NCBI GenBank assembly: GCA_002729315.1
Contig: PBTW01000020.1
Location: 24,240-83,121 of the forward strand
DNA from: Gammaproteobacteria bacterium
GTDB taxonomy: Bacteria; Pseudomonadota; Gammaproteobacteria; Pseudomonadales; Pseudohongiellaceae
Length of the DNA stretch: 58,882 nt
Reading direction: 5' to 3'
Below, piece after piece: positions 15,602 through 44,275 of this stretch; the stretch's first letter is position 1, and each line of letters opens with the position of its first letter. The position numbers were made by a program, and so were the translations under genes. Below the pieces are notes generated by a model. It saw nothing but the letters and a program-made list of their open reading frames with translations, searched no databases and was not told where the DNA came from.

Positions 15602-15944
15602 TTAATGGTCTCTGAATGATTGAGTCACAGGCTCCGCGGCATGTCTCGGGCTATCTGCGAGCAGCCAGCGATGCAGTCGCACACTTGCCCGTTCTGCCCA
15701 TCTGCGATGGACGCAAAGACACCAGCTTTCTTGGAATAAAAGGGTCGCGATGATCACTCAGAGTACACCGCGCCCTTGCCGGGCTCAAGGACCCTCAGAA
15801 ACCCCCAATTGATTGGCCGCCAAAGCTGGAGCATCGGTGACAATCGGCGCGGCTCGGGGTGCACAGGCGCTTATGGTAGACTCAGAATCCAGGGCAGAGA
15901 TCACCAAACGTCCATTGCTACAGTTTTCAACAGGAATTACGCAC

Positions 15945-17129
15945 ATGAGCAAAGTGTTAGAAGGCATCAGGGTATTAGACTTTGGGCGCTATATCGCGGG
16001 CCCTTACTGCGCGACACTACTTGCAGATCTCGGTGCCGACGTCATCCGCATCGAAAAAGTTGGCGGCTCTGAAGACCGCTTCGTCTCTCCGGTCACAGAA
16101 ACCGGCGATGGCGCCATGTTTCTGCAGCTTGGACGCAACAAGCGAGGCCTGACGCTGAACCCTATGAAGCCTGAGGGGCGAGAAATTGTTAAAAAATTGG
16201 TTGCGACAGCGGATGTGGTAGTCGCCAATCTGCCACCTGACACACTATGCGCTATGGGGTTAGACTATGATAGTTTGACCCAGATTAAACCCGACATTAT
16301 TCTGACCATGATTTCCGCTTTTGGCCGCGGCGGTCCTTACTCTAATCGAGTCGGTTTCGACGGACTAGGTCAGGCAATGTCGGGGAACATGTACATGTCA
16401 GGCACAATCGACCAGCCAGTCAAAGCCTACGCGCCGTTCATCGACTTTGGCACTGCTAGTCTGTCAGCCTTCGGCACGCTCGCAGCCCTATATGAGCGGC
16501 ACAAGACCGGCAAGGGTCAGATTGTGGAGGGGGCGCTTTTTAATACCGCCCTGACGATGATGAATGCGACCGCGATCGAACAGCAGGCGCTACAGGTCAA
16601 CCGGACGGCAACTCTTAATCGCTCGCAAACCTCGGGCCCGGCTGATACTTTCAAGACAAAAGACGGTTGGATTCTTATACAGACTGTGGGTGGCCCGCTA
16701 TTTAAACGATGGGCAGAACTTATGGGAGAGGAACACTGGCTGGAAGACCCCCGGTTTAAAGACGATATCAGCCGCGGGGACAACGGTGAAATCATCAGCA
16801 ATAGGCTGGCCCAATGGTGTGCTGAACGCACAACCGACCAGGCACTTCGGGAGATGGAAACCGCCAGAATTCCAGCAGGCCCGATACTCTCGCCTCAGGA
16901 TGTGCTGAATGACCCACATATCGCCGCTAAGGGTCTGTTTCAGCCAGTTGAATTTCCCGGTCTGCCCAACGCCGCCCCAATTATGCAGACGCCGGTGGAG
17001 CTTTCTGACACCCCGGGGGCAATACGCCATCGGGCCCCGACCCTTGGCGAACACACTGACGCCATATTGCAGGATCTCGGCTACACGGAGACTGAGATCG
17101 CGGGATTCCGCGCTCAGAGAATTGTCTAA
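15945..17129 (+). CDS. Family III CoA-transferase (CaiB/BaiF type)
   Basis: MSKVLEGIRVLDFGRYIAGPYCATLLADLGADVIRIE is the canonical N-terminus of the family. The ATG at 15945 is chosen. The ORF track has a 44-aa non-homologous extension. Confidence 0.85.
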   Translation: MSKVLEGIRVLDFGRYIAGPYCATLLADLGADVIRIEKVGGSEDRFVSPVTETGDGAMFLQLGRNKRGLTLNPMKPEGREIVKKLVATADVVVANLPPDTLCAMGLDYDSLTQIKPDIILTMISAFGRGGPYSNRVGFDGLGQAMSGNMYMSGTIDQPVKAYAPFIDFGTASLSAFGTLAALYERHKTGKGQIVEGALFNTALTMMNATAIEQQALQVNRTATLNRSQTSGPADTFKTKDGWILIQTVGGPLFKRWAELMGEEHWLEDPRFKDDISRGDNGEIISNRLAQWCAERTTDQALREMETARIPAGPILSPQDVLNDPHIAAKGLFQPVEFPGLPNAAPIMQTPVELSDTPGAIRHRAPTLGEHTDAILQDLGYTETEIAGFRAQRIV

Positions 17130-17198
17130 TAACAGAGTACAGCAGATCTCAGTCCGAGCAAGATCTGTTTGGCTAAACGGACTGAATTGGAGGACACC

Positions 17199-18449
17199 AT
17201 GCTGAAACCGAATCGCAAAAGCAGCCGGCGGGACTTTCTGAAGAAAGGCTCGGCAGTTCTGGCCGCTATTGGAACAACTCCCAGAGCACTCAACGCTCAA
17301 TCAATGGACGAGGAAAGATTCTGGCTTCAGGTTCGCAACCAGTTTGCCTTTACAGAAAACGCAGTGCCCATGAACGCCGCGAACCTCTGTCCGTCTTTTC
17401 GCTCCGTGACCGACAGCATCGAGCATTTTACTGCCGACGTTGATCGGGACTGCTCTTTTAATAACAGAGCAAAGTACACCAACTTACTCGAACGGTGTCG
17501 CAGCAGAATCGCTTCCCAACTGAACGTCTCCGCCGACGAAATTGCTCTGGTTAGAAATACCAGTGAAGCTAACAACATGATCAATAACGGACTGCCACTC
17601 GAAGTCGGCGACGAGATATTGCTTTGGGATCAAAATCACCCCACAAACAATGTGGCCTGGGATGTGCGCGCCGAGCGCTTCGGACTCAACATTAACAGAG
17701 TGAGCACCCCAACCGCGCCCACGAGCGAGCAGGAACTGCTGGAGACTTTTACCCGAAGGTTTGGACCCAACACGCGTGTCCTGGCGATTACGCAGATTTC
17801 CAATGTCAGTGGGATCCGCTTACCTGTCGCCGAACTGGTCTCAGCAGCACATGATCGCGGAATTCACGTTCATGTAGACGGCGCCCAGTCCTGGGGAGCC
17901 CTCAATCTGGATCTCGCGGCCCTGAATGTCGACTCGTTTAGCGCGAGTGCTCACAAATGGTACATGGGACCAAGAGAGGTTGGATTGCTGTACGTCAAAT
18001 CAGAGCACATCGCAAAAATCTGGCCAAGCGTCATCGCCCCCGGATGGGGTGGTGACAGCGAAACCGATCTGATTGGCGCGAGGAAATTTGAGTCGCTGGG
18101 TCAGCGTGACGATGCTGCGCTGGCGGCACTTGGCACCGCCGCAGAGCTTCACGATCAACTCGAACCAGCGCGAATCGAAGCGCGCATACAGTTTCTGGCG
18201 CAGCGCCTCAAGCAGGGGCTTGTGGAGGCCAATCTGGAACTGGTGACCCCGTTGACAGAGCAGCTCAGTCATGGCGTTTGTATTACCAAAGTTGCGGGCA
18301 ACAGGGGCGGCGAGATCAGCAACAGACTGTATTCAGACCATGGTATTGCCGCCGCTCCTACCGGAGGCTTGCGATTGTGCCCGACGATATACAACACCAC
18401 TGAGCATGTAGATCGCGCCATAGAGGGAATGAAAACACTGCTGGCCTGA
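17199..18449 (+). CDS. Class V aminotransferase-fold PLP enzyme (isopenicillin-N-epimerase-like) with a twin-arginine (Tat) signal
   Basis: SRRDFLKKGSAVLAAIGTT is a Tat motif. PLP-lysine context SASAHKWYMGP. There is no HHCA desulfurase motif. GGAGG SD precedes the ATG at 17199. Confidence 0.8.
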   Translation: MLKPNRKSSRRDFLKKGSAVLAAIGTTPRALNAQSMDEERFWLQVRNQFAFTENAVPMNAANLCPSFRSVTDSIEHFTADVDRDCSFNNRAKYTNLLERCRSRIASQLNVSADEIALVRNTSEANNMINNGLPLEVGDEILLWDQNHPTNNVAWDVRAERFGLNINRVSTPTAPTSEQELLETFTRRFGPNTRVLAITQISNVSGIRLPVAELVSAAHDRGIHVHVDGAQSWGALNLDLAALNVDSFSASAHKWYMGPREVGLLYVKSEHIAKIWPSVIAPGWGGDSETDLIGARKFESLGQRDDAALAALGTAAELHDQLEPARIEARIQFLAQRLKQGLVEANLELVTPLTEQLSHGVCITKVAGNRGGEISNRLYSDHGIAAAPTGGLRLCPTIYNTTEHVDRAIEGMKTLLA

Positions 18450-19610: not shown

Positions 19611-19820
19611 GGTACTTTGATCCAGGCTAGGGTCTTTGAGCAAAGCTATCACGCCCACGAGTCAACATTCAAACTGGCGCTTCGGACCCTACTGAGACCA
19701 AAAATGCGCAGCTTAATGGACTGATGCTTGAATTGGCGTAGCGATCGCCCTGCTATGCCTCTTTTTATTGGCCGTATTTGTCGCTATCCTTACACCTCAA
19801 ACAGGAGCGCAAGCGAAGTG

Positions 19821-20696
19821 ATGTCCCCCTACGACGTACCCTATATGGAACGCACCCGCCTCTATTACGAGGCTCAAGGATATACCATCCCTTATCAGTG
19901 GGCGCACCACGACTATACCCCCTTCAGTAAGCTGACCAAACCGCTGCCTCAATTACGGGTAGGCCTAGTAACTACGGCCATGCCAGATACTGAGCAGGGT
20001 CGTGCCGAACGCAAACTTTATTCAACCCCCTCGAGGCCTGTACCGGATTCCATGTTCACGCTGGGCCTTTCCTGGCACGATACGGTGACCCACACGCGCG
20101 ATGTGGGCAGTTTCCTCCCGATCGAAGCTCTGCTCGCAATAGAGTCGGAGGGTGGTATCGGCAGCCTGGCTCCGCATTTCCAGTCAGTCCCCACCGCCTA
20201 CAGTCAGCGGCAAACCATCGAAGAGGATGCGCCTGTCATTCTCAGCCATATGAAGAAAGACGAAGTGGATGTCGCCATTCTGGTACCCTTGTGACCTGTC
20301 TGCCACCAGACCGTGAGTCTGGTTGCCCGCCACCTGGAAGACAGCGGCATTCCTACAATCGTCGTCGGCAGCGCGCTCGACATCATTGAGCATGTTGGGG
20401 TTCCGCGCTACCTACATACAGATTTTCCCCTGGGAAATCCGTTGGGCACACCCTTTGACCGCGAAATGCAACGACAACACGTCGACATGGCACTAGATCT
20501 GCTGAATGAGGCCTGTCAGGCCAATACAGTGTGCCGCTCTCCGTTTTCCTGGCAGGGGGACACTGGCTGGCGGGACGACTACTCAAGGGTGACCGATGCC
20601 AATCGTGCAGCACTGGCCGCTGCCGGAGAAGCCCGCCGCGCTAAACAGATTGTCATGAAAAAAACCAATCCAAAACAGCAAATCCCGATGCCTTAA
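19821..20696 (+). CDS. PrdB/GrdB-family (GRDB) reductase subunit-like selenoprotein. The in-frame TGA at 20292-20294 is read as selenocysteine.
   Basis: Two same-frame ORFs are joined by a single TGA. The junction reads VDVAILVPL-U-PVCHQT...EDSGIPTIVV, and a SECIS-like hairpin lies downstream. I chose the ATG at 19821 (MSPYDV...), which has AGGAG upstream. Confidence 0.7.
20302..20326 (+). promoter_or_regulatory. Candidate bacterial SECIS hairpin
   Basis: GCCACCAGAC-CGUGA-GUCUGGUUGC forms 9 bp with one C.U mismatch. The upper 7-bp stem starts at the 11th nt after UGA, and the 5-nt loop contains G and U. Confidence 0.5.
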
Positions 20697-20736: not shown

Positions 20737-21606
20737 ATGAAAATGACAGGACTCTTCCACACCCTTATTCTCACCACAGCATTGCTCAAGGCTTGGTCTT
20801 CCTCGACCGCTCAGGAAGTTCGAATTTACAACACAGTTAAAAGCAAACTCATCGCGGGTCAGCAAGTCGTTGGTGGCACCGTCGATACCGCGGATCCGGA
20901 GATATACTGTGCCATGGCTAATGCGGGCTTCGATTTTATTTGGATCGAAATGCAGCATAGTCCCCTCTCCTTCAGCGAGGCAGCAAGGATGATCTGGGCT
21001 TGCCGGGATGCACCTGCCATACCCTTTATCAGAGTCCCCGATGCAAGCGAAGGAACGATTCAAAAGGCCACAGATATAGGCGCGTTAGGCATCATCGTTC
21101 CGATGGTGGACGGCGCAGGGAAAATGGCTGATGCCGTACGTTATGCCAAATATCCCCCACAGGGGCGCAGAAGTCAGGGTGGAGGACAATATGGGCGATT
21201 ATGGGGGCGTGATTATCGACAAACCTGGAATGACAATGTGCTTATCATTGCCATGATCGAAACGCTGGAAGGCACTGCCGAGGCTGACAGTATTGCAACA
21301 GTTGAAGGAGTAGATGGGGTATTCGTCGCCAGCGGGGATCTTGGCAGCTTCAGTGGCAAGCGCCAGGGAGAGCCTGACTATGAGCACCTGGTTGCGCGCA
21401 TCAAGGAAGAGACTGAAAGCGCGGGCAAGTTCCTCGGGGGCCCCTCAGCGTGGATGTCCGAACGCGAAGGCTATCAGTTTTTTCAGGCACCCAGCACCAG
21501 CAGTCTGATTCGGATTGGAGCCAGAATCACCCTCGAAGCAGCGGATCCATGCCGTTTCCTGCCTTCGGGCGCCACACCTGTAGACGGAGAGAACCCCTGC
21601 CCCTGA
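20737..21606 (+). CDS. HpcH/HpaI-family (class II, divalent-metal) aldolase with an apparent signal peptide
   Basis: GFDFIWIEMQHSP, IPFIRVP, AMIET.EG and DGVFVASGDL match the HpcH/HpaI fold. The N-terminus MKMTGLFHTLILTTALLKAWSSSTA is signal-like. It starts 40 nt after the selenoprotein gene. Confidence 0.8.
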   Translation: MKMTGLFHTLILTTALLKAWSSSTAQEVRIYNTVKSKLIAGQQVVGGTVDTADPEIYCAMANAGFDFIWIEMQHSPLSFSEAARMIWACRDAPAIPFIRVPDASEGTIQKATDIGALGIIVPMVDGAGKMADAVRYAKYPPQGRRSQGGGQYGRLWGRDYRQTWNDNVLIIAMIETLEGTAEADSIATVEGVDGVFVASGDLGSFSGKRQGEPDYEHLVARIKEETESAGKFLGGPSAWMSEREGYQFFQAPSTSSLIRIGARITLEAADPCRFLPSGATPVDGENPCP

Positions 21607-23988: not shown

Positions 23989-25155
23989 TCAGTAGGAACG
24001 CGGCAATCCCAGTTCGTGTTCCGAGATAAAATTCAAAATCATTTCCTGAGAAATCGGTGCGAGCTTCATCAGACGGGCCTCTCGCCAATACCGCTCAACG
24101 TGATACTCACGGGCATAACCAAACCCCCCGTGGGTCTGCATCGCCGCGTCCGCTGCGTAAAATCCCGCTTCGGCTGCCAGCCACTTAGCCATGTTTGCTT
24201 CGGTCCCACAGGGCATCCCTTGATCCAGCTTCCAAGCGGCTTTTTGTGCCATCAAACCGGCAGCGTCTAACCGGGTTCTGGCCTCAGCCAGCGGAAAAGC
24301 AATCCCCTGATTTTTGCCAATCGGTCTGCCAAAAACCACCCGCTCATTGGCATAGGACACCGCACGCGCTAGCGCTGCACGACCAATTCCTACTGCTTCT
24401 GCGGCAATCAGTATTCGCTCGGCATTCAATCCATCCAGCAGATAGCGAAAGCCTTTACCCTCTTCACCTACCCGATCGGATTCAGCAACTTTTAGCTCAT
24501 CGTAAACCACCTCACAGGTCCTCACGGCATTGCGACCAAGCTTCGCAATCGGGGAAATAGCTACCTCGGGACGTTTGAGTTCTGCGAACAGCAGCGTCAT
24601 TCCGTCAGTTTTTCGTTCAACTTCCTGCTTGCTCTGTGTTCGAACGAGAAGTAGCACCCTGTCTGACTCAAGCGCCTTGGTGGTCCAAACTTTCCTGCCG
24701 CTCACGACATAATGACCATCCACCAGTCTTGCCCTGGTCTCGATTGAAGTCGTGTCGCTACCGGCGTTAGGCTCAGTCACCCCAAAGGCGACTTGGAGCT
24801 TGCCGCTGGCAATGTCCGGCAAATATAGTTTTTTCATGCTTTCTGAGCCATGCTTGATCACCGGGTGCATTCCAAACATGGACAGATGCAAGGGGGTTGT
24901 ACCATTCATCGCCGCGCCCGATGCTGCTACCTGCTCCAGCACCACGGCGGCTTCCTGCACGCCCTTGCCGGCACCACCATAGGCTTCAGGAATCGCGATA
25001 CCAATCCACCCTGCCTCGGCCATGGCATCATAAAACTCCTGCGGGTACTGCCCTTCGCGATCTTGCCTTTCCCAGTACTCATCGGAAAAATCCCGGCACA
25101 CATTGCTGACCGCCTCGCGAATCAGCTTCAGGTCAATCGGCTCAGAAAAATCCAC
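23989..25155 (-). CDS. Acyl-CoA dehydrogenase
   Basis: 388 aa. It has the GVTEPNAGSD motif and the C-terminal catalytic region YAREYHVERYWREARL. Confidence 0.9.
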   Translation of the reverse strand: MDFSEPIDLKLIREAVSNVCRDFSDEYWERQDREGQYPQEFYDAMAEAGWIGIAIPEAYGGAGKGVQEAAVVLEQVAASGAAMNGTTPLHLSMFGMHPVIKHGSESMKKLYLPDIASGKLQVAFGVTEPNAGSDTTSIETRARLVDGHYVVSGRKVWTTKALESDRVLLLVRTQSKQEVERKTDGMTLLFAELKRPEVAISPIAKLGRNAVRTCEVVYDELKVAESDRVGEEGKGFRYLLDGLNAERILIAAEAVGIGRAALARAVSYANERVVFGRPIGKNQGIAFPLAEARTRLDAAGLMAQKAAWKLDQGMPCGTEANMAKWLAAEAGFYAADAAMQTHGGFGYAREYHVERYWREARLMKLAPISQEMILNFISEHELGLPRSY

Positions 25156-25227
25156 GGGTCATTCATTCCTGTTTCAAACAATGGAAGAGACAGCCCTTAG
25201 TCGCAGGCTAGGCCTTCCATTGTTGCT

Positions 25228-26151
25228 TCAGCTTTTCAGCTGAACATCAATTTGTTCAGCAATGGCGAGCACCTTGCGGGCTCGTTTCAAATGCGGCACA
25301 TCAACCATCTGCCCATTGAAGCTGAACGCCATCTTGCCTTCAGACTGGGCTTCAGCAAACGCCAGAAGTAGTTCCCTAGCAGCTGCGATCTCCTTTTCGC
25401 TGGGCGTAAAAGCCCCGTTCACCACGTCAATCTGAGTCGGGTGAATCGTCAGCTTACCCATAAACCCCATTGAAGCCGCCTCAGCACACTCTTTAGCCAG
25501 CGCGGCCTTCTCTGTAATTTCGACAAAGACTGTGTCAATGGGATGTACCTGGTTTGCAGCAGCCGCCAGCAGGCAGGATGAGCGAACAAAGCGGAACACA
25601 TCAAGATAAACCCCTTCGGTATTTCGCTTGGCGCGGGCGCCCAACTCCCCGGCGAGATCCTCTGCCCCCCAGGTAAGACCGTCAACCCTGCCGTTCCCCG
25701 CCATATCAGCAAGACAAAACACCGCCTCAGGCACTTCAGTGCCGATAAGCACCAGAGAGGTTGCGCCAGGTTGCATATTATTCCGTTCTTCAATCGAGCT
25801 GACCACTCGGTCGACTGCATCCACACTGGCGCGACTACTCACTTTGGGGAGCACCAGTCCATCCGGATGTGCCCCAGCAATCTCTTCGACATCATCTCTT
25901 CCCCACGGCGTGTCCTGCGGATTGATGCGAACCAGACACTCTTTCGCGCCAAAGTCTGCCTGTTCAATCCAATCGCAAACAGCCTTTCTAGCTGCTTCCT
26001 TATTATCTGGCGTGACCGAATCTTCCAGATCAAGAATCAGAGTATCCGCATTCAGCGTCAAAGCCTTCTCAAACATTCTTGCATTACCGCCCGGTACGAA
26101 ATGCAGTGATCTGCGTGGCCCCTTCGGCCCTGGAGTTGGAACCACTGCCAT
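25228..26151 (-). CDS. CitE-like / HpcH-fold acyl-CoA lyase (citramalyl-, malyl- or citryl-CoA lyase family)
   Basis: RRSLHFVPG...ADTLILDLEDSV...KLTIHPTQI match the citrate lyase beta / malyl-CoA lyase family. Confidence 0.85.
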   Translation of the reverse strand: MAVVPTPGPKGPRRSLHFVPGGNARMFEKALTLNADTLILDLEDSVTPDNKEAARKAVCDWIEQADFGAKECLVRINPQDTPWGRDDVEEIAGAHPDGLVLPKVSSRASVDAVDRVVSSIEERNNMQPGATSLVLIGTEVPEAVFCLADMAGNGRVDGLTWGAEDLAGELGARAKRNTEGVYLDVFRFVRSSCLLAAAANQVHPIDTVFVEITEKAALAKECAEAASMGFMGKLTIHPTQIDVVNGAFTPSEKEIAAARELLLAFAEAQSEGKMAFSFNGQMVDVPHLKRARKVLAIAEQIDVQLKS

Positions 26152-26153
26152 GC

Positions 26154-26624
26154 TCAGTTTCTCTCAGAATCGCCCGCAGTTAATTTAAGCATCATGCCTT
26201 TGCGCAAGCATTCACACACGATTTCGCCTCGCTGATTACGGGCAAGGTGCTTGAACCAAACTATCCCTCGATCAGGTTTTGTTCTGGATTCCCGCTTGTC
26301 CACAATCTCTGTCGAAACGCTCAGGGTATCACCGATGAAAACGGGGTTCGGGAACTCAGTACGCTCCATACCTAGATTGCCGATTGTAGTCGCGAGAGTG
26401 GTATCAGCAACAGACAGACCCACTACCAGTCCCAGCGTATACAGACTGTTGACCAGGATTTGGCCGTACTGAGACTCCTTCGCGAACTGAGCATCCAGAT
26501 GCAAAGGCTGCGGATTGTGGGTGAGCGCGGTAAATAGCAGATTATCGGTCTCAGTGATAGTCCGCGCCGGTTGGTGTTTATACAGCGCACCCACTTCAAG
26601 TTCTTCAAAGTATTTTCCGCTCAC
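26154..26624 (-). CDS. MaoC-like (R)-specific enoyl-CoA hydratase (single hot-dog)
   Basis: 156 aa, with a family-typical TITETDNLLFTALTHNPQPLHLDAQFA motif. Its stop lies 2 nt before the CitE-like start, so the two genes are probably co-transcribed. Confidence 0.85.
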   Translation of the reverse strand: MSGKYFEELEVGALYKHQPARTITETDNLLFTALTHNPQPLHLDAQFAKESQYGQILVNSLYTLGLVVGLSVADTTLATTIGNLGMERTEFPNPVFIGDTLSVSTEIVDKRESRTKPDRGIVWFKHLARNQRGEIVCECLRKGMMLKLTAGDSERN

Positions 26625-26735
26625 ATCCGGTTGTCGTCATCAGTCAGAAAAGAGTTGTACATTGTAGTGGCAACCGACAGGCGCATCCATTAAATTCTGA
26701 TGCAAGTAGGTAAGAGCAACAGCTAGGCGCCTTTA

Positions 26736-27584
26736 ATGAATAAAACGCATGCGCTCGGATGGATTGGCAAAACAGAGACACTGTCAGACACCCTGAACCC
26801 GGTTCCCTGCAAGGCTTTAGCCGCCACCTTCAATCGAGCATGGGATCCAAAAGAAGGAGACAGGTTGCCTCCTCTTTGGCACTGGCTGTATTTTCTCGAG
26901 ACGGCTCAGCAGGATGAACTCGCTGCTGACGGCCACCGCAAGCGGGGGGGGTTTCTTCCCCCCGTCCAGCTGCCAAGACGCATGTGGGCAGGTAGCCAGA
27001 TTCAGTTTCATTCCCCGATCACTTTGGGCGAGACACTGACCCGCCAATCGACCATAGAAAACATCAGGGAAACTACGGGACGCAGCGGCGCACTGACGTT
27101 TGTCAAAGTCCGCCATGAAATCGGGTCAGAGCAGCGTCCTGCAATTACGGAAATTCAAGATCTTGTATATCGCGAGGCCGCAAAACCCGGCGTTGCTCCC
27201 CCCGCCCCGGCGGCTGCTGAGTCGTCTGGCGACTATCACCTTAAATTAATCGCAGATTCACGTCTGCTGTTTCGCTACTCTGCCTTAACCTTCAATGCAC
27301 ACAGAATCCACTATGATTATCAGTATGCCACGCAAACAGAGGGCTACCCGGGCATCATTGTTCACGGGCCACTGCTGGCCACTCTGATGCTGGAACTGTT
27401 GCGCTCAAATTTCCCGGAAGAAGTGATAAAGGCATTTGAATTCAGAGCCTTAGGACCGATTTTTGGGGACCACCGGTTCAGTGTTCACGGTACCAGACCC
27501 GACCCCGATGGCAATGTTACCCTGTGGATTGCGAATCATGATAGTCAGCTATGCATGCAGGGAACAGCCAGTATTGAGCGCTAG
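26736..27584 (+). CDS. Two-domain MaoC/HTD2-type hydratase (N-terminal MaoC-dehydratase half plus hot-dog). Could be an itaconyl- or mesaconyl-CoA hydratase.
   Basis: 282 aa. The C-terminal FNAHRIHYDYQYATQTEGYPGIIVHGPLLATL matches the MaoC hot-dog motif. Confidence 0.7.
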   Translation: MNKTHALGWIGKTETLSDTLNPVPCKALAATFNRAWDPKEGDRLPPLWHWLYFLETAQQDELAADGHRKRGGFLPPVQLPRRMWAGSQIQFHSPITLGETLTRQSTIENIRETTGRSGALTFVKVRHEIGSEQRPAITEIQDLVYREAAKPGVAPPAPAAAESSGDYHLKLIADSRLLFRYSALTFNAHRIHYDYQYATQTEGYPGIIVHGPLLATLMLELLRSNFPEEVIKAFEFRALGPIFGDHRFSVHGTRPDPDGNVTLWIANHDSQLCMQGTASIER

Positions 27585-33705: not shown

Positions 33706-36621
33706 CTAGATCGATTCAAATGCGTCGGCGACTACTCCGGGCGTGAGAATTTGGGGAAGGATAACGGGCTCTTTGTCTGGCTGCCCCGGAAATAGAACGT
33801 AAAGCGGCACGGATGGCCGATTGAACCGCTCCAGAACAGCAGTGATCTCCGGATCTTCGTTAGTCCAGTCACCCTTCATATAGGTTATACCCCGGTCAGC
33901 CATCACCGTTTTGACACGCTCCGTGCCGAGCGTGGTCTGCTCATTAGCCAGACAGGTAATGCACCAAGCCGCGGTCATGTTGACGAAAACCGGTTTACCG
34001 GCGGACTGGAGCTCTTCCAGACGCTGAGCACTGAAAACCTCATAATCCTGCGATGCATCCTCTTCATTAGCTGCCACATCAGAAGTCGCCGGCACAGGTT
34101 GCAGAAATGGCGTCTGAACCAGATAAACTGCGAGAACCAGAGTCGCCACGCTTATTCCGTAATTCAGCGTGCGCAGGGATGGCCCCATAGTGTAGCGGCG
34201 CTGGTAGAGCCAGGCGGCAAACGCCATAACCACGCATATGCCCAGCACCAGCGACATCCCCATCACTCCCACCTGATTACCAAGCACCCAGAGAAAAAAT
34301 AGCGCAGAGGCATACAGCGGAAAGGCCATGAACTGCTTGAAGGTCTCCATCCACGGCCCGGGTTTGGGTAAAAATCGAAACAGCGCGGGTGAGTAACTCA
34401 GCAACAGAATCGGAAAAGCCATACCCACTCCCAGTGAGAAAAATACAGCCATGGCCACCAGCCAGGACTGCGTCAGCGCAAAACCGATCGCCGGCCCCAT
34501 AAAGGGTGCCGTGCACGGCGTTGCGACGGTAGTGGCCAGCACACCGGTAAAGAACGATCCCTGATAGCCACCCTCGGCGGTGAGAGAGCCGCCGGCTCCC
34601 ATCAGGCTGGTCCCTATCTCAAAGACGCCTGACAGACTCAGGCCCATCAGGAAAAACAGATAAACAATGAACGCCAGAAACCAGGGCTGCTGAAACTGGA
34701 ATGCCCAGCCCACTGCTTCCCCTCCCGCCCTGAGCGCAATCAGCACCGACGCCAGCGTGACGAATGCCACTACCACACCGAGCGTATAGAACACGCCGTC
34801 CATACGCTGCTTCTGACTGGATTCACCCACATTCTTTGCAAAGCTCATCGCCTTGATGGACAGCACCGGAAAGACGCACGGCATCAGATTGAGAATCATG
34901 CCACCAAGAAAGGCAAACCCCATAAACATGAGTATCCCGGAACTTCCGCCTGCGTCAAACCCGCTATCTGCAGACGCAGAAAATGGCAAGATGGTGCTGG
35001 CGTCTGCGGCCGGATTGACGAAATCAAAGGCCACGCGTTCTCCGATTTCATTTTCCAGCACAAGCACTCCGAACACTTCCGACAAATCCTGCAGCATGCG
35101 CCGGGGTTGCTGGTGCGTAATCTGCAGAAAATTGGCCTGCATAGACACATCACGAAGAGGTCCGGGCTTGATTATCCGGCGCTGTTCCGGAAAAAAGTAG
35201 GCATCAGAATATCGGTCGAACAGTGGGCCAGAGGATTCAAAGCCAAGGCTGACCCGTTGACCGGCCACGGCAATGATCGAGCGAATGTCGTGGACAGCTT
35301 CAGGCAGCTGTGCGCGCGCGTCGGCGAACAGGGCTTGGGTTCCGGCATCGAGCTCGGCGACTTCACCGACGGGCAGTTTTATGCTCAGCCTCTGCTCACC
35401 GGGTATGCAAACCTGATCGCACACATTCCAGTAAGCCAGCGCGCTCAATTCTACCTGGTCTGCACTGAAACCTGCCGGCAGGGTGACGGCAACAGGAAGG
35501 ACGACTTCCTGCTCATAACCAAAGTTCACAAGGTCCGTCTCATAAAACGGCAGCCAGTGCGGGGCCGGCCACTGTAGCTCGCCAACCTGAGTCCCTCCCG
35601 GAGCCTGCCACTCCGTCAGGGTAGTAGGCTCCCCGCTGTCACCCCCCATTTTCCAATAGGTGTGCCAGTGCTCAGCCGGGTCGAGCCGGAGCGCCAGCCA
35701 GGTGGTTTCACCGGGCAAAATGTTGGTGGTCTCGGACAGCAATTCGACTTCAATACTGTGATCCCAGGCCGCGGCACTGCGCGTTGCTGTGAGTTCAAAA
35801 GCCCGCAGTTCACCTTTATCGTCTCTGACCGAGAGCAGACCTTCCAACTCGTTACGCGCGTCATCGTACCGGCGGTGCTGTTCGGTTGATATCTGGACTC
35901 TGCCACCGTCCAGCATGACCTCTCGATAGGGTGCGTAACGCATAATGCGACGCTCCGTCGGGAAAAACCACGCCTCATCAATGTCGGTAAACGGCGCTTC
36001 CTCGCCCGCGATCATGACATTGACCTTGCCATCGTGATCATTGAATTCAGCGACCAGCTCGTGCTGACCCTCTGGAGTCGGGAGCAAACTGCGGGTCTCA
36101 ACAAACGCCCCTACCCAGCGGGCATCTGCTTCGAGGGTGGAGCTGACCGGAAGAGAAATGGCAAAGTCTGCCTCCCCCGGGATACAGATTTCATCGCACA
36201 CCTGCCACTCGACACGCGTGCTCGCCTGAAACACATCCTCTTGAAAGTCCTCAGGCACCGTCAACGCTATCGGCAGGAAGACCTCGCGCTCGTAAGTAAA
36301 GGTCACCAGATCGCTGCCAAGAAAGGGGGTCCACTCGGGAATCGGCCACTGGATCTGCCCCACCGCCGCACCAGCCGGCAGCTTCCAGTCCACCGCCCGC
36401 GTCGCTTCGCCACTGTCACCGCCAAATTTCCAGTAGGTGTGCCAGTGATCAATAGGATCAAGGCGGATTGCCAACCAGGTAGTCTGGCCGGGCACGACAT
36501 TTACGGTCTCCGAGACGAGCTCAACCTCGATCTGATCGGTTTGATGCACCTGTGCGCTGACAGTCATCGCGAACAAAGAAAACACGATGAATATCAATAG
36601 CCTGGTCTTATTTAGGGCCAT
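33706..36621 (-). CDS. DsbD/ScsB-family thiol:disulfide reductase with a duplicated periplasmic N-terminal module
   Basis: Signal peptide. Two ~255-aa modules each carry C-x3-C (VCDEICIPG, VCDQVCIPG). The CcdA-like membrane core has LMPCVFPVLS and TPCTAPF. The C-terminal thioredoxin fold has WCITC. Confidence 0.85.
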   Translation of the reverse strand: MALNKTRLLIFIVFSLFAMTVSAQVHQTDQIEVELVSETVNVVPGQTTWLAIRLDPIDHWHTYWKFGGDSGEATRAVDWKLPAGAAVGQIQWPIPEWTPFLGSDLVTFTYEREVFLPIALTVPEDFQEDVFQASTRVEWQVCDEICIPGEADFAISLPVSSTLEADARWVGAFVETRSLLPTPEGQHELVAEFNDHDGKVNVMIAGEEAPFTDIDEAWFFPTERRIMRYAPYREVMLDGGRVQISTEQHRRYDDARNELEGLLSVRDDKGELRAFELTATRSAAAWDHSIEVELLSETTNILPGETTWLALRLDPAEHWHTYWKMGGDSGEPTTLTEWQAPGGTQVGELQWPAPHWLPFYETDLVNFGYEQEVVLPVAVTLPAGFSADQVELSALAYWNVCDQVCIPGEQRLSIKLPVGEVAELDAGTQALFADARAQLPEAVHDIRSIIAVAGQRVSLGFESSGPLFDRYSDAYFFPEQRRIIKPGPLRDVSMQANFLQITHQQPRRMLQDLSEVFGVLVLENEIGERVAFDFVNPAADASTILPFSASADSGFDAGGSSGILMFMGFAFLGGMILNLMPCVFPVLSIKAMSFAKNVGESSQKQRMDGVFYTLGVVVAFVTLASVLIALRAGGEAVGWAFQFQQPWFLAFIVYLFFLMGLSLSGVFEIGTSLMGAGGSLTAEGGYQGSFFTGVLATTVATPCTAPFMGPAIGFALTQSWLVAMAVFFSLGVGMAFPILLLSYSPALFRFLPKPGPWMETFKQFMAFPLYASALFFLWVLGNQVGVMGMSLVLGICVVMAFAAWLYQRRYTMGPSLRTLNYGISVATLVLAVYLVQTPFLQPVPATSDVAANEEDASQDYEVFSAQRLEELQSAGKPVFVNMTAAWCITCLANEQTTLGTERVKTVMADRGITYMKGDWTNEDPEITAVLERFNRPSVPLYVLFPGQPDKEPVILPQILTPGVVADAFESI
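35002..36531 (-). repeat. Tandem intragenic duplication (two ~770-nt units, roughly 35755-36531 and 35002-35754)
   Basis: IEVELVSETVNVVPGQTTWLAIRLDPIDHWHTYWKFGGDSGE... aligns with IEVELLSETTNILPGETTWLALRLDPAEHWHTYWKMGGDSGE..., and the alignment continues to ...FFPTERRI / FFPEQRRI. The DNA copies are clearly related but diverged. Confidence 0.75.
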
Positions 36622-41500: not shown

Positions 41501-42250
41501 TTAGTTCAGACCTAGCATGGCGGCCAGTCTTTCACTGTCCATATACCCGGGTACCAGGCGACCGTCAGAAAATACCAATGCTGGCGTACCGCTAATACCA
41601 AGCTCGTTACCTAATTGGTAGTGATCTAGAATCGGCGTCTCGCAGCTGGCTGCTGGCAGGTCTTCGCCCTCCTTGGCAAGGGTTAAGGACCGCTTGCGAT
41701 CATCAGAACACCAGACCGAGATCATCTTGTCGTAGGAAGTCGCTGCCTGCCCGCCGCGTGGGTAAGCTAGGTACCGTACTTCAATACCGTAAGCCATCAG
41801 ATCTTCTAGATCCCCGTGCAGAGCGCGGCAGTAGGTACAGTCCACGTCGGTAAACACCGTTATGCTTGCCTTCATGGCATCCGGTGTGAACACGATCATT
41901 TCGTCTTCGGGGATAGCATCAATCTTGTCCAATGCGCGCTGTTGCCGCGAATTCGCTGAAAGATTGGTGAGCCCGCCCGGGCTCGTCGCATACATGTCAC
42001 CCGCAAACAGATAATCACCAGAGATATCGCTGTAGAGCACTTCTCCTGTATTGAGCTCAACCTCAAAAATATTTGGCAGGGCTGTTTGATTCAGGGACAC
42101 GATCTTCAATTGATTCTGAGAAGCCACTTCGATTGCCTGTTCCAGCTTACCGCGCAGAGACTGGTCACTCTGTGCTGAAGCAGGGCCGATCAGAATCAGA
42201 CTCAACAACACTCCTCCCAGCAACCGAACCTCTTGGATTGTCATTCGCAT
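41501..42250 (-). CDS. dsbC: Thiol:disulfide interchange protein DsbC (disulfide isomerase)
   Basis: Signal peptide, thioredoxin active site CTYC and a second Cys pair. Conserved dsbC...recJ neighbourhood. Confidence 0.85.
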   Translation of the reverse strand: MRMTIQEVRLLGGVLLSLILIGPASAQSDQSLRGKLEQAIEVASQNQLKIVSLNQTALPNIFEVELNTGEVLYSDISGDYLFAGDMYATSPGGLTNLSANSRQQRALDKIDAIPEDEMIVFTPDAMKASITVFTDVDCTYCRALHGDLEDLMAYGIEVRYLAYPRGGQAATSYDKMISVWCSDDRKRSLTLAKEGEDLPAASCETPILDHYQLGNELGISGTPALVFSDGRLVPGYMDSERLAAMLGLN

Positions 42251-42894: not shown

Positions 42895-43656
42895 TCACGC
42901 TTTGTCCGCACAGTACTCTTGTTTAAATTCTTCCAATAATGCCTGCTGTTCCTTACTTAGCTCAAGCTGGTCCAGCAAATCCGGACGCTTCAGCCAAGTC
43001 ACCCCCAACCGCTGCTTTTTGCGCCAGTGCGCAATTGCAGCATGATCTCCGCTAAGTAAAACCGACGGTACAATCCTGCCTCGATACTGCTGAGGCCTGG
43101 TATATTCCGGAGCGTGCAATAGCCCGTCCACTAAACTGTCCTGAGTCACTGAGCCCTCATCGCCCAGTGCGCCCGGCTGAATCCTGATCAGGGCGTCAAG
43201 CAAAGCCATGGCCGCAATCTCTCCCCCGCTGAGCACAAAATCTCCGAGCGAGAGCTCTTCATCAATCTCAGCCTCAATCACTCGGGCGTCGATGCCCTGA
43301 TAACGGCCGCAAACCAAGGTAATAGACTCAAGTGCTGCAAGCTCAGTCACCTTGTGATGATTGATCCGCTGCCCCTGGGGCGATAGGTAAATGCACCGCG
43401 ACCTTCCGCTTTCCCGCTTACCGAGCACAGCCCGCGAAGCACCAAGGGTTGCCAGCAGCGGCTCTGTTTTCATCAGCATTCCGGGACCGCCGCCAAACGG
43501 TTTATCGTCCACGTTGCGATGTTTGTCTGTGCAATAGTCCCTTGGGTTCCAGAAGGACAGCTTTAGCAATCCGGCTTCGATACCCCGGCCGCTGACACCG
43601 AATTCCGTCAGCGCTGCGAACATCTCGGGAATCAACGTGACAATCGCAACCTGCAT
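42895..43656 (-). CDS. trmD: tRNA (guanine37-N1)-methyltransferase TrmD
   Basis: [13 protein letters not shown]..., with a GGGPGM motif. ATG at 43656 with GGGAG SD. Confidence 0.95.
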
Positions 43657-43710
43657 CTTGCCAGCTCCCTTCATTTGCCAGCGATTGAGCGCATGTCTCG
43701 TGCAGCGCAC

Positions 43711-44253
43711 TCAACTCAAATAATCGATATCCCAGTCTACAACCAAACTGACATCGCTCACCGATACTTGCTTCACCACCAAGCCCGTCAGGTAAGGTAT
43801 CAGTCGCTCTCGCTGGTCACAGCTTCGTGCGCTAGGCTGCACCACAAGCACGTCATTGGCCCCTGTTTCCAGTAAACCCGATACTGTACCCAGTATCTCA
43901 CCCTGCAGATTGGTCACTTCCAACCCGACTAGTTCGTGCCAGTAGAACGTGCCAGACTCAAGAGCGGGCAACTCTGAGCTGTTTACCCAGACTTCCTTAC
44001 CAGTCAGTACCCTGCTAACCTCCGGATTGTCGTACCCGGCAAAATGTACCAGCAGTCCCTTAAGTTGCCGCCGACTGGCATCGATCTCTAACGTGCCCAG
44101 TGTTCCGTTCAGCTCTGCACGTAACAGCGGGTAGTCCAGAATATTGTCAGGCGGCGCAGTGTAGGATTTCAGCCTTACCCAACCGCTCACGCCGTGGACC
44201 CGGCCTACCTGGCCAAGCACTACCCTCTTGTCGGCCATCTCCGAGTCGTTCAC
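43711..44253 (-). CDS. rimM: 16S rRNA processing protein RimM
   Basis: VVLGQVGRVHGVSGWVRLKSYT and a PRC barrel. The start is ambiguous (GTG at 44253 or ATG at 44238). Confidence 0.9.
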   Translation of the reverse strand: MNDSEMADKRVVLGQVGRVHGVSGWVRLKSYTAPPDNILDYPLLRAELNGTLGTLEIDASRRQLKGLLVHFAGYDNPEVSRVLTGKEVWVNSSELPALESGTFYWHELVGLEVTNLQGEILGTVSGLLETGANDVLVVQPSARSCDQRERLIPYLTGLVVKQVSVSDVSLVVDWDIDYLS

Positions 44254-44275
44254 AACGGCCAGTTAAACAAGATGC

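Follow-up and report, generated by a model that had tools for sequence, protein, structure and literature searches.

We propose that positions 19821 to 20696 of the gammaproteobacterial DNA analyzed here (a stretch of 58.9 kb, hereafter called the window) form one gene for a 291-residue selenoprotein in a stand-alone “PrdB-like” branch of GRDB proteins, in which an in-frame UGA codon is decoded as selenocysteine (Sec) by means of a hairpin that follows it. We put the probability of this reading, which was reached by sequence comparison, at about 0.93. The gene family is already known, having been published as a selenoprotein family in 2005 and again in 2008.

In the mechanism that we envisage, the UGA at 20292 most likely does not act as a stop during translation. 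The hairpin, which begins 8 nt past the UGA, would recruit the SelB·GTP·Sec-tRNA(Sec) complex, as happens with other bacterial selenocysteine insertion (SECIS) elements, and selenocysteine would then be inserted in the host as residue 158. The resulting U-P-V-C segment would most likely serve as a redox-active selenol/thiol center that cycles through a selenenylsulfide as it acts on its putative substrate, with Sec158 as the presumed nucleophile by analogy with PrdB and GrdB.

One reading frame across an in-frame TGA

The forward-strand frame from 19821 to 20696 is continuous except for the TGA at 20292 to 20294, and it ends with a TAA at 20694 to 20696. A sequence-only reading of this DNA had described the open reading frames (ORFs) at 19728 to 20294 and 20313 to 20696 as sharing a frame and as being separated only by that TGA and six sense codons (encoding PVCHQT), and all of its coordinates were confirmed. 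It had also expected gene callers to split the gene, and public assemblies indeed call two genes here, of 158 aa and 127 aa. Around the junction, the read-through product is ...KKDEVDVAILVPL*PVCHQTVSLVARHLEDSGIPTIVVG..., and the sequence flanking the predicted Sec158 is ILVPL-U-PVCHQTVSLVAR. The start is likely the ATG at 19821, or the GTG at 19818 as in the public assembly calls; the N terminus of the product aligns with those of homologs. A scan for promoters and terminators around the gene returned nothing above chance. TGA is the normal stop of 19 of the 39 confident genes in the window; an alternative genetic code was therefore rejected, and any recoding at 20292 must be local. In annotation, the 158-aa and 127-aa ORFs should be merged into one selenoprotein gene, and the same correction applies in the genomes of at least 120 species. 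The features of the gene are collected in Table 1.

Table 1. Positions of the candidate selenoprotein gene and its elements in the window
Feature	Positions	Strand	Basis or remark
Shine-Dalgarno-like AGGAG, putative in function	19803-19807	+	10 nt upstream of GTG 19818, 13 nt upstream of ATG 19821
Predicted CDS of a 291-residue PrdB-like (GRDB-superfamily) selenoprotein	19821-20696	+	Translation, homologs, TIGR04483
UGA, predicted selenocysteine codon, residue 158	20292-20294	+	Cys column in homologs; TGA in other genomes and assemblies
TGC, Cys161, partner of Sec158 in U-x-x-C	20301-20303	+	Invariant in alignment; putative resolving/redox role
Predicted bacterial SECIS-type hairpin, inside the CDS	20302-20326	+	Fold, covariation, and synonymous-site retention in TGA forms

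To find homologs, the joined 291-aa product was searched with Cys in place of the stop. It matched the NCBIfam model TIGR04483 (D-proline reductase PrdB) with an E value of 7e-23 over model positions 20 to 235 of 238, across the junction. A search of a large protein collection returned 2205 homologs, the best of which are about 291 aa long and are about 50% identical to the query over more than 90% of its length. These homologs are single polypeptides of about 291 aa, and their source annotations read “D-proline reductase PrdB” or “glycine reductase” (e.g., in Bradyrhizobium); JGI uses the PrdB name. When the joined product was aligned with 19 full-length homologs, the column of the TGA was Cys in all 19 (PL-C-PVCHQT), within an invariant P-V-C-H-Q, and the window product was found to retain the invariant residues both before and after the TGA. 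The Sec/Cys column of the family thus coincides with the TGA, where the sequence-only reading had placed the selenocysteine.

One genome per GTDB species was scanned with a DNA pattern for P-L-TGA-P-V-C-H-Q-T, and at least 120 species-genome loci were found with TGA at this codon, against a chance expectation of about 1 match (estimated roughly from how degenerate the pattern is and how large the database is). The carriers listed are very diverse metagenome-assembled genomes (MAGs) and include Pseudomonadales, Pseudohongiella, Azotimanducaceae, Reyranella, Rhodospirillaceae, Acidimicrobiia, Poriferisodalis, Myxococcota/Deltaproteobacteria, Dehalococcoidia, Tectomicrobia, Binatia, and others. 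All 120 matches listed show homology on both sides of the TGA. Among them, loci not cut by a contig end have an open frame of about 125 to 135 codons past the TGA, with median frame lengths of 183 codons upstream and 129 codons downstream. The TGA forms nearest to the window protein among the GTDB species-genome matches listed are 56 to 62% identical to it. At closer range, the window locus itself recurs in four marine assemblies that are independent of one another: two Tara-type assemblies and one other from ENA, plus one from Logan. These are 99.1 to 99.8% identical to the window. The sequence-only reading had proposed a check of the support for the TGA, and all four assemblies have it. Within the gene, they differ from the window at 3 to 4 nt, always synonymously, and two of the differences lie downstream of the TGA.

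The TGA forms among the matches listed are far more diverse than the Cys forms that were sampled (median pairwise identity of about 50% versus 78%), the latter coming mostly from soil metagenomes and Bradyrhizobium-like genomes. Selenocysteine may have come before cysteine, or may prevail, in the PrdB-like family. One match to the Cys pattern (L122:11365-11420) reads CPVCHQTLSH*H, with a stop soon after the motif, and is either a chance match or a degraded copy.

The hairpin downstream of the UGA

The RNA fold bore out the hairpin that had been drawn at 20302 to 20326 from the sequence alone, with 9 bp, a C·U mismatch, and the loop CGUGA. The lower pairs G20302-C20326 and C20303-G20325 are followed by the mismatch and then by an upper stem of 7 bp (20305 to 20311 with 20317 to 20323), closed by the loop at 20312 to 20316. 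Over 54 nt from the TGA, the minimum free energy is -18.9 kcal/mol (z = -2.3, with 4 of 200 shuffles equally stable), so that the fold taken from the window alone is modestly better than chance.

Comparative data put the hairpin far above chance. We aligned the 48 nt from the TGA for 120 sequences among the matches listed and scored a nine-pair structure, in which 94% of the cells are standard pairs. In this alignment of listed matches, pair 15-31 is CG in 75 sequences and UA in 23, and pair 18-28 is GC in 94, AU in 13, and GU in 6. Neither the observed pairing nor the covariation was matched by any of 500 shuffles, and sliding the 3' partner reduced pairing to 20 to 32%. Third codon positions in the listed TGA forms are free outside the hairpin and constrained inside it: Thr is encoded by ACC in 107 of 119, Val is encoded by GTG in 104 of 119 and is invariably followed by a codon ending in GT, and Leu is encoded only by CTG or TTG. 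In the apical loop of the same forms, G22 is present in 117 of 119 and U23 in 119 of 119.

As a control, metagenome contigs were scanned with the same pattern carrying TGY, which yielded 78 Cys-form loci. Ser is encoded by AGT in 96 of 96 TGA forms among the matches listed and by AGC in 67 of 78 Cys forms, and the AGC codon breaks the A19-U27 pair. Among sequences encoding HQTVSLV, all seven upper-stem pairs are present in 63 of 63 listed TGA forms versus 2 of 40 Cys forms. Because the hairpin is kept in TGA forms and broken in Cys forms, the RNA structure is selected only where the codon is UGA, and such UGA-only selection is the signature of a bacterial SECIS element. Since marine MAGs supplied most of the TGA set and soil metagenomes most of the Cys set, composition could account for some of the difference in codons between them, but it cannot account for AGT in 96 of 96. 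The earlier description of the hairpin as SECIS-like is thus strengthened by its Sec-specific conservation and by compensatory changes in the TGA forms.

Like bacterial SECIS elements such as that of Escherichia coli fdhF, the hairpin lies within the coding sequence just 3' of the UGA, its small apical loop has a conserved G (and U) across the family, and its upper stem begins at the 11th nt after the UGA. A stem-loop immediately past the TGA with a G in a small apical loop is also what has been used to recognize such elements (PMC1088965). The hairpin differs from those elements in that its sequence is family specific and matches no Rfam model: the Rfam SECIS families gave no match in the whole window at gathering thresholds or in 20270 to 20360 at E values up to 10.

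No selA, selB, or selD was found among the scanned ORFs of at least 180 aa in the window, which, the locus itself aside, are largely housekeeping and catabolic genes. The tRNA genes of the window are those for tRNA-Arg and tRNA-Ser, with no tRNA-Sec. In one other MAG (L070, positions 1 to 2800), the TGA ortholog adjoins a tRNA-Sec gene (2267 to 2362, anticodon tca) and belongs to the same cluster as a thioredoxin reductase-like gene (1339 to 2241) and the 3' part of selB (9 to 1328). This cluster lends indirect support to Sec decoding and hints at a thioredoxin reductase-type reductant for the PrdB-like protein; it is the sole case, selB or thioredoxin reductase-like neighbors not having been found in the remaining loci. 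As for other selenoprotein genes in the window, 94 TGA-joined pairs of ORFs were judged by eye and nothing convincing emerged; the pair at 42895 to 44262 is the adjacent genes rimM and trmD.

The TGA might instead mark a pseudogene, a Cys-form gene now decaying after a TGC-to-TGA nonsense mutation. In its favor, Cys forms are common, and callers split the gene into 158-aa and 127-aa pieces. However, the TGA is present in at least 120 species, in each of which about 129 codons of intact homologous ORF come after it, and it is hard to reconcile decay with the invariant residues that the window product retains downstream of the TGA, with polymorphisms among four assemblies that are all synonymous, or with a hairpin maintained in TGA forms only. 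With a downstream part free of frameshifts and of neutral evolution, this explanation is very improbable and effectively refuted. A TGC or TGT that was missequenced or misassembled as TGA is the default worry with any single in-frame stop, and nothing specific speaks for it; it is barely credible given that the TGA recurs in all four of the independent assemblies, which come from different samples (ENA Tara and others, and Logan), and in every related locus among the matches listed.

Nor do we give more than negligible weight to the idea that a gene of 157 or 158 aa and a distinct gene of 127 aa are neighbors in one frame by coincidence. A GTG at 20313 could start the second of them, and public annotations do give two genes, but the six codons from the TGA to that GTG encode the invariant PVCHQT of the family. 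The alignment refutes this arrangement, as do homologs that are single polypeptides of about 291 aa and NCBIfam alignments that cross the junction.

Relation to PrdB, GrdB, and the marine “PrdB” family

The selenoprotein family to which we assign the gene was described from the Sargasso Sea by Zhang, Fomenko, and Gladyshev in 2005 (PMC1088965). Their supplement has entries labeled “Proline reductase PrdB,” within which the string uPVCH occurs 15 times; one of them, AACY01093821, has the product ...DAALLVPLuPVCHQTVGLVARHLESNGIPTVIAGSARDIIEQCGVPRFLFTDFPLGNP.... With 42 Sec genes, the family was the third most abundant in that survey (PMC1088965), and the Global Ocean Sampling (GOS) analysis of Zhang and Gladyshev in 2008 counted 235 Sec and 110 Cys members with a UxxC motif (PMC2398784). 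Later reviews treat D-proline reductase (TIGR04483, UxxC) as a known selenoprotein. Because the uPVCH entries match the motif and flanks of the window product, the present gene is a correct reidentification of a known selenoprotein family. It shares with that family the active-site peptide and its flanks, the in-frame TGA, the Cys homologs, and the downstream stem-loop; nothing essential sets it apart, and it is a further member. The sequence-only reading had called it a hidden selenoprotein, which is true with respect to gene callers and not with respect to the family, published with the same motif in 2005. What remains of value concerns the label, since an abundant family is called a “proline reductase” on the strength of distant homology only, with no PrdA partner nearby.

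The sequence-only reading had also described the product as PrdB/GrdB-like. This stands at the level of superfamily homology, for which the TIGR04483 match speaks, and fails at the level of the enzyme families, whose score cutoffs are not reached and whose PrdA/GrdE partners are not found nearby. The TIGR04483 score is 81.3 bits against an equivalog cutoff of 300. Four GrdB-type NCBIfam models also matched over their C-terminal portion of about 155 positions, with scores of 43.7 against a cutoff of 65.45 for TIGR01918 and 34.9 against 602 for TIGR01917. The Pfam GRDB model PF07355 matched weakly, at 16.4 against 22. All NCBIfam and Pfam matches lie below curated cutoffs. The window protein is not a demonstrated member of the PrdB or GrdB enzyme family. 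Residue 158 aligns to position 148 of 238 in TIGR04483, a model whose Sec column is not displayed. This is consistent, within the model offset, with the Sec of Clostridioides difficile PrdB, which is U151 (PMC11229817).

Compared with clostridial PrdB (C. sticklandii and C. difficile), the window protein is homologous over almost the whole model and has the same U-x-x-C motif, in which Sec is presumably the nucleophile. In contrast to it, the window protein is 291 aa long rather than roughly 240 aa (an estimate from the 238-position model and the 25.7-kDa C. difficile protein), and it extends past the model-aligned part by about 35 residues at the N terminus and 45 at the C terminus. Its locus also lacks the prdA, prdH, and prdC context, and its host is a marine gammaproteobacterium with aerobic-type neighboring genes and not a Stickland fermenter. 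Compared with GrdB, GrdF, and GrdH (PF07355, TIGR01917, and TIGR01918), residues 86 to 239 align to model positions 274 to 431, with the Sec column at about model position 346 to 350. However, the window protein is without the N-terminal 270 or so residues of these proteins (291 aa versus about 430 aa), and no grdA, grdE, or grdC is near its gene. Its motif is U-P-V-C-H-Q-T, with no second Cys, and not U-x-x-C-x-x-C; the motif of protein B is UxxCxxC (PMC13188914).

The PrdB name is doubtful because the scores are far below the PrdB and GrdB cutoffs and because PrdA or GrdE is neither present in the window nor conserved near homologs; as a statement of function, it is probably wrong. Since no pyruvoyl partner (PrdA/GrdE) is found in the window and none is conserved beside homologs, the protein is probably not a classical D-proline reductase subunit. 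A true PrdB would act together with a PrdA pyruvoyl subunit from an unlinked part of the genome, and its reaction would be the reduction of D-proline to 5-aminovalerate. TIGR04483 is the best NCBIfam match, over positions 20 to 235 of 238, the Sec column falls at about U151 (PMC11229817), and the name is in use in the literature and in JGI annotation. Against these points stand the 81 bits where 300 would be needed, the lack of PrdA/GrdE, PrdC, or similar proteins among the scanned window ORFs of at least 180 aa, and the lack of any conserved neighbor across 195 loci, where the best is an alpha/beta hydrolase at 18. The contexts, moreover, fit aerobic catabolism, the window having ETF-QO, acyl-CoA dehydrogenase, and CoA-transferase and Bradyrhizobium a Mo oxidase with cytochrome c, and about 35 N-terminal and 45 C-terminal residues fall outside the alignment to the PrdB model. 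We therefore consider a true PrdB unlikely. We lean slightly toward the view that the stand-alone “PrdB” of aerobic marine and soil bacteria is an independent Sec/Cys reductase that has no pyruvoyl partner and acts on an undefined substrate. If this is true, a family that ranked near the top for abundance in the Sargasso Sea and GOS surveys has been misnamed for two decades.

Structure model and gene neighborhood

In an AlphaFold model of the window protein (pLDDT of 72, pTM of 0.73), Sec158 lies in a loop between a strand (151 to 155) and a helix (161 to 174), and Cys161 forms the N terminus of that helix. This predicted placement suggests that the U-P-V-C pair is most likely the redox center. 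A sequence-profile search of the PDB gave no match at E values up to 1, and a Foldseek search of the model against the PDB gave only generic Rossmann-like matches (best E value of 6e-3, TM score of about 0.25), which are functionally uninformative.

The search for partner genes covered several scales. The scanned window ORFs of at least 180 aa include no PrdA/GrdE pyruvoyl subunit, PrdH, or PrdC, and no PrdA-type partner is present in two Cys-form contexts (Bradyrhizobium and another lineage). When all ORFs within 6 kb were clustered for 195 loci, no neighbor occurred in more than 18. The recurrent minority neighbors are alpha/beta hydrolase (18 loci), CoA-transferase III (16), acyl-CoA dehydrogenase (12), SDR (12), and enoyl-CoA hydratase (10), named from window Pfam hits or from a reading of cluster representatives. 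In the window, the gene is flanked by a divergent alpha/beta hydrolase gene and by an HpcH-type aldolase gene whose start is 40 nt downstream. This hydrolase/selenoprotein/aldolase order is common to the window and to Pseudohongiella/Pseudomonadales MAGs, which hold the closest syntenic loci. Complete chromosomes with TGA orthologs, such as OZ220475.1 and OY761612.1, are likewise syntenic with the window.

The HpcH/HpaI-type aldolase (20737 to 21606) has a signal peptide-like N terminus (MKMTGLFHTLILTTALLKAWSSSTAQE), which is unusual for its family; seven related loci show the aldolase gene in synteny with the selenoprotein gene. Genes at 15813 to 18449 and 23989 to 27584 of the window resemble a CoA-dependent organic-acid pathway, encoding CoA-transferase III, a class V aminotransferase, acyl-CoA dehydrogenase, an HpcH/C-C-lyase-type protein, and MaoC/mesaconyl-CoA hydratase-like proteins. 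CoA-transferase III and acyl-CoA dehydrogenase recur near homologs in other genomes.

The Cys form of Bradyrhizobium (L203:2844-8183) sits in a same-strand run that could be a functional clue. The run opens with genes for a sulfite oxidase-like Mo enzyme and a cytochrome c, continues with an MFS transporter gene and the PrdB-like gene, and includes a gene for a 436-aa TPR-like protein, whose start overlaps the stop of the PrdB-like gene; an AraC-type regulator is divergent upstream. The Cys form of the other lineage lies between peptide-type solute-binding proteins and an FAD oxidase. Elsewhere in the window, a 971-aa DsbD-like protein is encoded at 33706 to 36621. It matches DsbD_N in two stretches and also has a thioredoxin-like domain and the DsbD transmembrane domain; a DsbC-like gene lies near it, at 41501 to 42250.
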